A stretch of DNA of 64,000 nt from Escherichia coli (GTDB lineage Bacteria; Pseudomonadota; Gammaproteobacteria; Enterobacterales; Enterobacteriaceae). Below the pieces are notes generated by a model. The model was not told the DNA's origin. It searched no databases and worked only from the letters and a program-made list of their open reading frames with translations. Location of the stretch: assembly GCF_041886205.1 (NCBI RefSeq), contig NZ_CP169029.1. One strand, 5' to 3'. Of the stretch, positions 5,060-30,840 are shown in pieces (position 1 is the stretch's first letter; each line of letters starts with the position of its first letter). The translations under genes were made by a program, and so were the position numbers.

Positions 5060-5180
5060 GGTTGCCGGATGTAAAATATGAAAAATATGTAGGCATGATA
5101 AGACGCGCCAGCGTCGCATCAGGCATCGAGAGCCAAATGCCAGATGCGGCGTGAACGCCTTATCTGGCCTACGAACCGAC
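5060..5180. repeat. REP/BIME cluster between ybaL and gsk
   Basis: Two or more REP units with the GCCTGATGCGACGC / GCCAGATGCGGCGTGAACGCCTTATCTGGCCTAC motif read directly. Confidence 0.6.
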
Positions 5181-12488: not shown

Positions 12489-14420
12489 TCAAATGGGGCG
12501 GATACTTTCTTCATCCAGCTCCGCATCGAAAAACCGACGCAGGGTCTGAATATTATTATCCGCAATAATGGACTCGCGCGCCTGCGCAAGTTTTTCTTCG
12601 TATATCGCCTGACGCCACTCCAGCGGCGTACGCACCGCGGGATTATCATCTTCAACGATAGTCAGTTCAACCGTTGAACCTTTTAACATGCTCAACGCTT
12701 CAGCCAGTTTTTGCTGTGCACCGCGGTTGTTCAAATGCCGCTGAGAGGAGCGCAAATGCAGACATACTGCGTTGTCGCTCTCCTCTTTCCAGGCATTTAA
12801 CGCCACCTGTTCGACCAGTTTTGGTAGCGAAAGTTGGCTCACCTGTGCCGCCCACGGGTCGCGCTCAATGGCTTCTGCCGCCAGCTTCGCCGCCAGTTCC
12901 GGCGTTTTTTCATGTTCCAGCGCTTTTTTCAGCGCCTTCGGCGTGGCGACCACTTCTTTTTGCTGCATCACTGGAGTGGTAGCCTTCCAGCGATACGCTT
13001 CTTTTTTGGCTGGCGCTTTTTCCAGCGCCGATGGCACCGGACGCGCCTGAACGCGATCGGTGACCGAAGCCAGTCTTTCCAGCGCAGCGTTATTCACCGG
13101 CCGCGCGCGGGTAGCGGCTGCCGGTTCACTCTTTTTTGCTTTGGTTGCTCCCTGCACGCGCTGCAACTGCTGGCGCGCCGCCAGCACCTGGCTGGTGGTT
13201 TCCGGGAGCGGTACAGTCGGTGCCTGCTGCGGCGCTGATTGCGGTTGCGGCGGCACCTGGGTTGGCGTCATTACTGCCGTTGGCGCGACGGGCGCAAAGG
13301 ACTGGCGTGGCACTTCTGGCTCAGGCAGAGGCATACGTGGATGGAACGCCAGCGCGCGCAGCAGCGTCATCTCAACGCCCATGCGGCGGTCCGGCGCATA
13401 CGGTAATTCTTTGCGACCAATCAACAGCGTCTGATAGTAAAGCTGAATATCCGTCGGCGGTATGGTGCGCGCCAGTTCACGCATCCGCAGCTCAATGGCG
13501 GCCATGTCGTTGCCAAGTGCAGCAGGCGAAAGTTGTACCATCGCAATACGATGCAACAGGCCGAGCATTTCCACCAGCAACGCTTCCCACTCGATACCAC
13601 GGGCAGCGGCTTCATTAATCAGCGCCATTACGCGCTCGCCGTTGGCCTCGACCATCGCTTCAACCAGCGACAGCGCCTGATCGTCATCAAGCGTACCCAG
13701 CATCGCACTGACTGCCTGGGTTGAAACCTGGCCGTCACCGCTGGCAATCGCCTGGTCGGTCAGACTTAAGGCATCTCGCAGGCTGCCTTCAGCGGCGCGC
13801 GCCAGCAATTGCAACGCCCGCGGCTCGTGAGCGATATGTTCTTCGTTGAGGATGTGCTCAAGTTGATGGCGAATTTGCTCGACATCCAGCGCCTTGAGAT
13901 GAAATTGCAAACAGCGCGACAAAATCGTCACCGGCAATTTCTGTGGATCGGTCGTCGCCAGCAGAAACTTAACGTGCTCCGGCGGCTCTTCAAGGGTTTT
14001 TAACAGTGCGTTAAAGCTGTGGCGCGACAGCATATGCACTTCGTCGATCAGATAAACTTTGAAACGACCACGCGCCGGAGCGTACTGGACGTTATCCAGC
14101 AGGTCGCGGGTATCTTCAACTTTGGTGCGCGAGGCGGCGTCGATTTCAATCAGATCGACAAAGCGCCCCTGCTCGATTTCACGACAGTTATCGCACACGC
14201 CGCACGGCGTCGCGGTAATGCCGGTTTCGCAGTTTAGCCCCTTCGCCAGCAGTCGGGCGATAGAGGTTTTTCCGACGCCACGGGTGCCGGAAAAAAGATA
14301 AGCATGATGAATACGCCCTAACGACAAGCCGTTCGCCAGTGCGGTCAGCACATGTTCCTGGCCGACGACGTCAGCAAAGGTTTGTGGGCGCCATTTTCGG
14401 GCTAAGACCTGATAACTCAT
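12489..14420 (-). CDS. dnaX: DNA polymerase III tau subunit (gamma by programmed frameshift)
   Basis: 643-aa ORF with AAA+ clamp-loader motifs; recognised as DnaX. Confidence 0.96.
   Translation of the reverse strand: MSYQVLARKWRPQTFADVVGQEHVLTALANGLSLGRIHHAYLFSGTRGVGKTSIARLLAKGLNCETGITATPCGVCDNCREIEQGRFVDLIEIDAASRTKVEDTRDLLDNVQYAPARGRFKVYLIDEVHMLSRHSFNALLKTLEEPPEHVKFLLATTDPQKLPVTILSRCLQFHLKALDVEQIRHQLEHILNEEHIAHEPRALQLLARAAEGSLRDALSLTDQAIASGDGQVSTQAVSAMLGTLDDDQALSLVEAMVEANGERVMALINEAAARGIEWEALLVEMLGLLHRIAMVQLSPAALGNDMAAIELRMRELARTIPPTDIQLYYQTLLIGRKELPYAPDRRMGVEMTLLRALAFHPRMPLPEPEVPRQSFAPVAPTAVMTPTQVPPQPQSAPQQAPTVPLPETTSQVLAARQQLQRVQGATKAKKSEPAAATRARPVNNAALERLASVTDRVQARPVPSALEKAPAKKEAYRWKATTPVMQQKEVVATPKALKKALEHEKTPELAAKLAAEAIERDPWAAQVSQLSLPKLVEQVALNAWKEESDNAVCLHLRSSQRHLNNRGAQQKLAEALSMLKGSTVELTIVEDDNPAVRTPLEWRQAIYEEKLAQARESIIADNNIQTLRRFFDAELDEESIRPI
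13131..13137 (-). promoter_or_regulatory. dnaX: dnaX programmed -1 ribosomal frameshift heptamer A AAA AAG (gives gamma subunit)
   Basis: Plus-strand cttttttgc at 13131-13139 is the reverse complement of GCAAAAAAG; encoded ...AKKSEP...; GC-rich stem-loop follows on the mRNA (13101-13128). Confidence 0.8.
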
Positions 14421-25423: not shown

Positions 25424-25432
25424 GCGCTAATA
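25424..25432. repeat. IS1 target-site duplication, left copy (GCGCTAATA)
   Basis: 9 bp immediately outside the IS1 end, identical to 26201-26209. Confidence 0.9.
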
Positions 25433-25447
25433 GGTAATGACTCCAAC

Positions 25448-25951
25448 TTATTGATAGTGTTTTATGTTCAGATAATGCCCGATGACTTTGTCATGCAGCT
25501 CCACCGATTTTGAGAACGACAGCGACTTCCGTCCCAGCCGTGCCAGGTGCTGTCTCAGATTCAGGTTATGCCGCTCAATTCGCTGCGTATATCGCTTGCT
25601 GATTACGTGCAGCTTTCCCTTCAGGCGGGATTCATACAGCGGCCAGCCATCCGTCATCCATATCACCACGTCAAAGGGTGACAGCAGGCTCATAAGACGC
25701 CCCAGCGTCGCCATAGTGCGTTCACCGAATACGTGCGCAACAACCGTCTTCCGGAGCCTGTCATACGCGTAAAACAGCCAGCGCTGGCGCGATTTAGCCC
25801 CGACATAGCCCCACTGTTCGTCCATTTCCGCGCAGACGATGACGTCACTGCCCGGCTGTATGCGCGAGGTTACCGACTGCGGCCTGAGTTTTTTAAATGG
25901 CGGAAAATCGTGTTGAGGCCAACGCCCATAATGCGGGCGGTTGCCCGGCAT
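25448..25951 (-). CDS. insB: IS1 InsB' reading frame (expressed as InsAB' transposase by -1 frameshift at A6C motif)
   Basis: 167-aa frame recognised as IS1 InsB; slippery A AAA AAC motif on the minus strand at about 25887-25896 (plus-strand gttttttaaa). Confidence 0.88.
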
Positions 25952-26145
25952 CCAACGCCATTCATGGCCATATCAATGATTTTCTGGTGCGTACCGGGTT
26001 GAGAAGCGGTGTAAGTGAACTGCAGTTGCCATGTTTTACGGCAGTGAGAGCAGAGATAGCGCTGATGTCCGGCGGTGCTTTTGCCGTTACGCACCACCCC
26101 GTCAGTAGCTGAACAGGAGGGACAGCTGATAGAAACAGAAGCCAC
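25870..26145 (-). CDS. insA: IS1 InsA (transposition inhibitor / N-terminal part of InsAB' transposase)
   Basis: 91-aa [23 protein letters not shown]... zinc-finger/HTH protein, recognised as IS1 InsA. Confidence 0.92.
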
Positions 26146-26200
26146 TGGAGCACCTCAAAAACACCATCATACACTAAATCAGTAAGTTGGCAGCATCACC

Positions 26201-26209
26201 GCGCTAATA
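26201..26209. repeat. IS1 target-site duplication, right copy (GCGCTAATA)
   Basis: 9 bp immediately outside the IS1 end, identical to 25424-25432. Confidence 0.9.
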
Positions 26210-27199: not shown

Positions 27200-27370
27200 T
27201 AAATAATTCGCTTTCGGAGCTATAACCGGCTGTTTATTAAGAATTTTATACTTTTTCGCCATGAAGACATACCCTATGTGATCTTTATCACACAGATGTA
27301 ATGGGAACGTTCTCTTCACTGACTTTTCGTCTTACTGTGTTGCCGCATTTTCAGCAACCAGAGGTCAGTA

Positions 27371-27958
27371 ATGAGCACAGAAAAAGAAAAGATGATTGCT
27401 GGTGAGTTGTATCGCTCGGCAGATGAGGCGTTATCTCGCGATCGCCTGCGCGCTCGTCAGCTTATTCACCGATACAATCATTCCCTGGCGGAAGAGCACA
27501 CATTACGCCAGCAAATTCTCGCTGATCTATTCGGTCAGGTGACAGAGGCTTATATTGAGCCAACGTTTCGCTGTGACTATGGCTATAACATCTTTCTCGG
27601 CAATAATTTTTTCGCCAACTTCGATTGCGTGATGCTTGATGTCTGCCCTATTCGCATCGGTGATAACTGTATGCTGGCACCAGGCGTTCATATCTACACG
27701 GCAACACATCCCATCGACCCTGTAGCACGTAATAGCGGTGCTGAACTGGGGAAACCCTTCACCATCGGTAATAACGTCTGGATTGGCGGACGCGCGGTCA
27801 TTAACCCTGGTGTGACCATTGGTGATAACGTCGTGGTAGCCTCAGGTGCAGTTGTCACAAAAGATGTCCCGGACAACGTTGTCGTGGGCGGTAATCCAGC
27901 CAGAATAATTAAAAAATTGCAATCGGTTTTTCGCAACTGTTATGCAAAATTGTGGTAA
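27371..27958 (+). CDS. maa: maltose O-acetyltransferase (left-handed beta-helix acyltransferase)
   Basis: Recognised as Maa; ORF here is 195 aa, 12 codons beyond the 183-aa K-12 length as I recall it (sense codon CAA at 27920-27922 where a stop is expected). Confidence 0.9.
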
Positions 27959-28037
27959 ATCTGTTACTTTCCCTCTACTATTCCCACGTTAAAATAGGGT
28001 GTTCCCTAGAAAGTTGCAGATACCACGAAGGCAAACG

Positions 28038-28508
28038 ATGACCGAAATACAACGCCTGCTGACCGAAACGATTGAGTCTCTGAATACCCGCGAAAAACGC
28101 GATAACAAACCCCGCTTTAGTATCAGTTTTATCCGTAAACATCCGGGGCTGTTTATCGGTATGTATGTTGCTTTTTTTGCCACCCTGGCGGTGATGTTGC
28201 AGTCCGAAACGCTTTCAGGCTCTGTCTGGTTACTGGTTGTATTATTTATCCTGCTTAATGGTTTCTTCTTTTTCGATGTCTACCCACGCTACCGCTATGA
28301 AGATATCGACGTGCTGGATTTCCGCGTTTGCTATAACGGCGAATGGTACAACACGCGCTTTGTACCTGCCGCGCTGGTTGAAGCCATCTTGAACTCTCCG
28401 CGTGTCGCGGATGTTCAAAAAGAACAACTGCAAAAAATGATCGTCCGTAAAGGTGAATTGTCTTTTTACGATATTTTTACCCTTGCTCGCGCCGAATCAA
28501 CATCTTAA
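28038..28508 (+). CDS. ylaC: inner membrane protein YlaC
   Basis: 156-aa from [15 protein letters not shown] with two hydrophobic helices; ORF-track start at 27999 is over-extended. Confidence 0.88.
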
Positions 28509-30726: not shown

Positions 30727-30840
30727 GGGTGGGGGCCCTGCCAGCTACATCCCGGCACACGCGTCATCTGCCTTGGCTGCTTCCTTCCGGACCTGACCTG
30801 GTAAACAGAGTAGCGTTGCGGGAGAACCAACAGAGCCCCC
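30727..30840 (-). ncRNA. ffs: 4.5S RNA (signal recognition particle RNA)
   Basis: Plus strand 30727-30840 is the exact reverse complement of the 114-nt E. coli 4.5S RNA as I recall it (GGGGGCUCUGUUGGUUCUCCCGCAACGC...GGCAGGGCCCCCACCC). Confidence 0.95.

Follow-up and report, generated by a model that had tools for sequence, protein, structure and literature searches.

The closest described relatives of the gene considered here are the maltose O-acetyltransferase Maa of Escherichia coli K-12 and its paralogue LacA. The maa gene of K-12 MG1655 (b0459) is 552 nt long, corresponding to 183 codons and a stop, and encodes a protein of solved structure (PDB 1ocx, 6ag8) that ends with the residues KKL. 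It is part of the gene order tomB-hha-maa-ylaC-pdeB and is non-essential in the laboratory. LacA (b0342, 203 aa; PDB 1kqa) is 42% identical to Maa and has the same hexapeptide-repeat fold, but naturally runs 20 residues past the point equivalent to the Maa stop. The hexapeptide repeats are conserved and His113-Pro114 is invariant across an alignment of Escherichia Maa proteins and LacA; we take His113 (Maa numbering) to be the catalytic histidine of the Maa/LacA group.

The window, a 64,000-nucleotide stretch of E. coli DNA, has maa in the orthologous chromosomal position (hha-maa-ylaC, as in MG1655) and in the same wider neighbourhood as K-12, and its product belongs to the same NCBIfam equivalog above cutoff; it differs from K-12 in having CAA in place of the TAA stop, adding 12 residues, and in a V130F substitution private to the window lineage (Table 1). 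A first-pass annotation had read the frame as 195 aa, gave K-12 Maa as 183 aa with a KKL end, and proposed a single-nucleotide TAA to CAA change at codon 184. All three points hold: the list of open reading frames and the translation agree on 195 aa, MG1655 maa has the stated length and does not read through to the downstream stop, and pairwise alignment with the K-12 gene, ungapped at the 3′ end, identifies one causal substitution (C in the window, T in MG1655 at 27920) and no indel. Within the 36 nt 3′ of the lost stop the sole other difference from MG1655 is a G to A change at 27958, a common polymorphism also present in O145, B2 and other haplotypes, which converts the downstream stop from TAG to TAA. 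The orthologous stop has been changed to a sense codon by a point substitution, and the extension is closed by an in-frame stop that lies ahead of ylaC. Because a stop is expected approximately every 21 codons, the 12-codon run is of chance length, and the notable feature is therefore the loss of the stop alone and not the length of the extension.

Table 1. Coordinates of the extended maa gene, its distinguishing sites, its downstream neighbour and the RNA elements of the window.
Feature	Position	Strand	Remarks
naRNA4	5092-5169	-	RNA element, usual place
dnaX frameshifting element	13092-13156	-	RNA element, usual place
maa ribosome-binding site AGAGG	27360..27364	+	Presumed Shine-Dalgarno site, being 6 nt upstream of the ATG; the other haplotypes compared all have GGAGG
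Extended maa CDS	27371..27958	+	195 codons and TAA stop; from ORF list, RefSeq annotation and NCBIfam NF007499
Codon 20, GCG (Ala)	27428..27430	+	ACG (Thr) in K-12; shared polymorphism, also in B2 haplotypes
Codon 130, TTC (Phe)	27758..27760	+	In place of GTC (Val); missense change linked to the stop-loss and confined to the window lineage
Codon 184, CAA (Gln)	27920..27922	+	TAA stop in K-12 and nearly all E. coli; T to C at 27920
12-codon extension	27920..27955	+	3′ untranslated spacer in other strains; outside the 183-position profile
New stop, TAA	27956..27958	+	TAG in K-12 (variable-site table)
ylaC	28038..28508	+	Downstream neighbour; RefSeq annotation of identical sequence mapped onto the window
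SRP RNA ffs	30736-30832	-	RNA element, usual place
sraA	48485-48580	+	RNA element, usual place

By all of the sequence-based criteria tested, the window gene is assigned as the maltose O-acetyltransferase gene maa. Its product scores 391.6 bits against NCBIfam NF007499 (the PRK10092 equivalog; curated cutoff 314), with profile positions 1–183 aligning end to end to residues 1–183 and residues 184–195 falling outside the profile, which places the extension 3′ of the hexapeptide-repeat domain as the first-pass annotation had it. Residues 1–183 are collinear with K-12 Maa and contain two differences (T20A and V130F), and the 183-residue enzyme core is intact.

The 12-residue tail has a net charge of +2, a GRAVY of −0.28, four aromatic residues and one cysteine; an aromatic, partly hydrophobic and Cys-bearing segment of this kind could promote misfolding or proteolysis. 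Tails encoded by 3′-UTRs drive aggregation in mammalian cells, a different system that provides loose context only (PMC7144920). An AlphaFold2 model of the 195-aa form, built on a 6-sequence alignment, has a mean pLDDT of 50.6, with the tail at ~30, values too low for the tail to be placed. An added C-terminal segment is structurally plausible, since E. coli Maa was solved folded in PDB 6ag8 with 8 extra C-terminal residues past KKL (chain length 191, residue 184 seen directly; presumably an affinity tag), and LacA carries its 20 further residues. By analogy with these two proteins the tail is probably tolerated.

The explanation that we consider very probably correct as a whole is a stop-loss extension with an intact core and a tolerated tail, near-neutral or mildly deleterious in effect. 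The T to C transition at 27920 turned the maa stop TAA into the glutamine codon CAA, and ribosomes would then read on across what was 3′ spacer, adding 12 codons before they meet an in-frame TAA. The predicted product is a maltose O-acetyltransferase with its 183-residue core intact and a 12-residue tail that would hang off the C-terminal end of the β-helix and be tolerated there, and the allele would have a neutral or mildly deleterious effect and leave the regulation of ylaC unchanged. It is probably a rare, ordinary and near-neutral polymorphism, and the earlier suggestion that it may be neutral is consistent with the evidence. The understanding of Maa is unchanged by it.

Among the 5,426 complete E. 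coli genomes, 5,424 have the locus at 95–100% identity. Carriers were counted with short megablast probes centred on 27920, for which a 28-nt exact word is needed, so that genomes with T cannot be seeded. A 41-mer probe from the window identified C in five of the 5,426 genomes, and a 48-mer tolerant of SNPs just to the right of 27920 found the same five; a probe of the same design with a B2-type left flank and C substituted found no carriers among the 5,426. The corresponding K-12 41-mer seeded 3,680 genomes. Five divergent haplotypes (B2 and other types) were sampled from the genomes not seeded, and each has TAA and a maa annotated at 552 nt. With the K-12-like and B2-like flanks tested, 5,421 of the 5,426 genomes are without the C allele, every non-carrier examined has TAA, and the C allele is present in 0.09% of complete genomes.

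All five carriers have a 588-nt maa in RefSeq, in agreement with the earlier claim of a real allele difference, and RefSeq already lists the annotated allele under three protein accessions. One of these, WP_000102544.1, is the exact 195-aa window protein, and is annotated as maa in strains wlxctx60, ET201 and 6EVA. In a collection of 15 billion proteins WP_000102544.1 is present on 204 public contigs and two other stop-loss Maa variants on 175 and 5, compared with at least 1,000 contigs for the K-12 form; the recovery of these exact 195-aa proteins indicates that the stop-loss persists in successful clones. A literature search found no paper tying maa to a stop-codon polymorphism. A single base is involved, as it would be if the true base at 27920 were T, misread in sequencing or assembly, and the gene were of the normal 183-codon form. 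However, the same base occurs in five independently sequenced complete genomes (Japan, China, Singapore and USA), position 27920 is outside any homopolymer (the nearby A-run ends 4 nt upstream), and the two further variants also carry the stop-loss. The independent carrier assemblies and the 204 contigs with the exact protein exclude an error for practical purposes, leaving it next to no probability, and the 195-aa annotation reflects a genuine allele, with its stop called correctly.

Variable-site tables place the C allele on three haplotype backgrounds. The first is the window haplotype, common to wlxctx60, 6EVA and ET201 and marked by A at 27360, G at 27428, C at 27592, 27601 and 27674, and T at 27758; the Maa proteins of these three strains are identical to that of the window. 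Over ~40 kb, and apart from an IS1 element (below), the window differs from wlxctx60 (from bear faeces, Japan) at 2 bases, 34609 and 38851, both A in the window and G in wlxctx60; there are 8 differences from 6EVA and 141 from ET201. On this similarity the window is placed in one clone with wlxctx60 and 6EVA.

The second background is that of the enterotoxigenic (ETEC) O6:H16 strain 2014EL-1346-6, whose protein (WP_023486916.1) has the same T to C change and 12-codon extension on a K-12-type haplotype, without T20A or V130F. This carrier differs from MG1655 at 2 of 1,420 sites (27345 and 27920), which indicates an independent origin; recombinational import of C would need a tract of less than 199 bp (between the markers at 27758 and 27958). 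The third is Z142-6 (WP_096271889.1), an O145-type haplotype with C at 27920 and the same extension, again without T20A or V130F, and with a private C to T change at 27932 that gives R188C in the tail; C may have been imported into Z142-6 on a recombination tract of less than 345 bp. Judging from the variable sites, the T to C change at 27920 has arisen at least two times, and probably three. Such recurrence is unremarkable for a one-site transition over thousands of genomes, and it is very unlikely that repeated loss of the same maa stop on two or three backgrounds reflects selection, whether on Maa stability, CoA binding or ylaC expression. The stop-loss is a clean natural bacterial polymorphism, lasting in at least two widespread clones including ETEC O6:H16, and could serve to mark lineages, or as a modest model case for the tolerance of C-terminal read-through tails.

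The TAA stop of maa is placed as the ancestral state and CAA as the derived one, since C is present in only 5 of 5,426 genomes, the non-carriers examined have TAA, and Maa has 183 aa and a KKL end in E. ruysiae as well as in the other Escherichia of that protein cluster. The solved Maa orthologues of Geobacillus, Bacillus anthracis and Clostridioides have their C-termini 1–2 residues from the same point. The polarity would be reversed if the 195-codon form were ancestral and the K-12 form a derived nonsense truncation, with the 36 nt past the K-12 stop a coding relic comparable to the longer C-terminus of LacA. Both phmmer and BLASTP carry the Maa-LacA alignment through tail residues 184–193, and the in-register BLOSUM62 score is matched by only 3.4% of shuffles. 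Yet when any register is allowed, 61% of shuffled tails match the LacA C-terminus equally well, and the 36-nt stretch has 9 variable sites among 13 haplotypes, as non-coding DNA would. Against the frequency of C, the non-carrier stops and the common end-point of the Escherichia proteins and the distant structures, an ancestral 195-codon form has a vanishingly small probability. Homology of the tail to the LacA C-terminal segment was rejected, the similarity being at chance level and the orthologues from distant phyla ending at the same point. In the sister species E. albertii, one Maa (WP_149451388.1, one contig only) has 185 aa and ends with KKLQP, a small displacement of this stop codon distinct from the one described here.

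Three other differences from K-12 are linked to the stop-loss in the window lineage, one of them the shared polymorphism T20A. Among 13 haplotypes, T at 27758 (G to T, V130F) is confined to the window, wlxctx60, ET201 and 6EVA, and the G to A change at 27360, in the presumed ribosome-binding site, is confined to the same four among 10 haplotypes. Residue 130 is Val in four solved Maa alignments and in every other Escherichia protein read, and Ile in LacA; from the register of the hexapeptide repeat it appears to be a small inward-pointing residue of the β-helix. With V130F and the weaker AGAGG site linked to the stop-loss, the whole gene might be impaired in the window lineage, and together the changes could reflect relaxed constraint on maa in the window clone. 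The stop-loss would then be one of several degenerative changes in a gene under relaxed selection, a reading to which the three lineage-private changes on one haplotype, each able to reduce function, lend support, as do the otherwise uniform Val or Ile at residue 130 in each orthologue and paralogue alignment examined, the laboratory dispensability of Maa, and the occurrence of frameshifted maa forms (206 and 222 aa) in the public collection. However, maa keeps an uninterrupted reading frame and His113, its family score exceeds the cutoff by a wide margin, and the gene of the O6:H16 carrier has the stop-loss but none of the other changes and otherwise matches K-12. Gene decay is on balance unlikely, and a near-neutral or mildly deleterious extension of an intact enzyme is preferred.

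Downstream, ylaC is not overlapped by the extension, since its ATG is 79 nt past the new maa stop. The + strand of the maa-ylaC spacer has no promoter-like or terminator-like site with either allele, and no Rfam family was found in the spacer. On the minus strand, antisense to maa, K-12 has a 9/12 promoter-like match whose −10-like hexamer (TACAAT, positions 27917–27922) is changed to TGCAAT by the stop-loss SNP; the match is at chance level (1 found, 1.9 expected). A promoter or terminator effect of the stop-loss was rejected on these grounds. The spacer RNA (27923–28045) has a predicted folding energy of −34.7 kcal/mol (z = −2.9 versus shuffles), with helices that pair tail codons with the ylaC start region. 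SNPs in B2 and other haplotypes disrupt predicted pairs without compensation, and in B2 haplotypes the same fold is weaker, at roughly −21 to −24 kcal/mol; a functional RNA structure was rejected given these uncompensated natural SNPs and the lack of an Rfam family.

The spacer fold, the presence of C on two to three haplotype backgrounds and the two widespread carrier clones (204 and 175 contigs) would fit an adaptive or regulatory allele, for which the tail itself, or translation of the extra 36 nt, is beneficial; examples would be a change in the turnover of Maa, or translational coupling by which the ylaC initiation region becomes accessible. The uncompensated helices argue against this, as do the frequency of just 0.09% and the change already present in the Z142-6 tail (R to C), which speaks against constraint on the tail; the few recurrences are no more than thousands of genomes would yield. 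An adaptive or regulatory role is extremely improbable.

Elsewhere in the window, a complete 768-bp IS1 is located at 25433–26200 between acrB and tomB, ~380 bp upstream of where tomB begins. Its insA and insB genes are on the minus strand, its terminal inverted repeats are 23 nt long, and a target duplication of 9 bp (GCGCTAATA) flanks it at 25424–25432 and 26201–26209. The insertion is recent, as it is absent from the otherwise near-identical wlxctx60, 6EVA and ET201, and it could have an effect on tomB-hha expression.

A small upstream ORF (MGTFSSLTF...) at 27301–27405 overlaps the maa start, near which there is an A-rich run at ~27379–27391. In the public 206-aa 'Maa' forms this ORF is fused to maa through a 5′ frameshift in the A-rich run, with the KKL end kept; the 222-aa form is frameshifted in the A-run close to the 3′ end. 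Both cluster members were rejected as stop-losses, being frameshift forms, and may be either homopolymer sequencing errors or real frameshift alleles. The length difference of hupB in the wlxctx60 annotation corresponds to a start-site call only, the DNA there being the same as in ET201.
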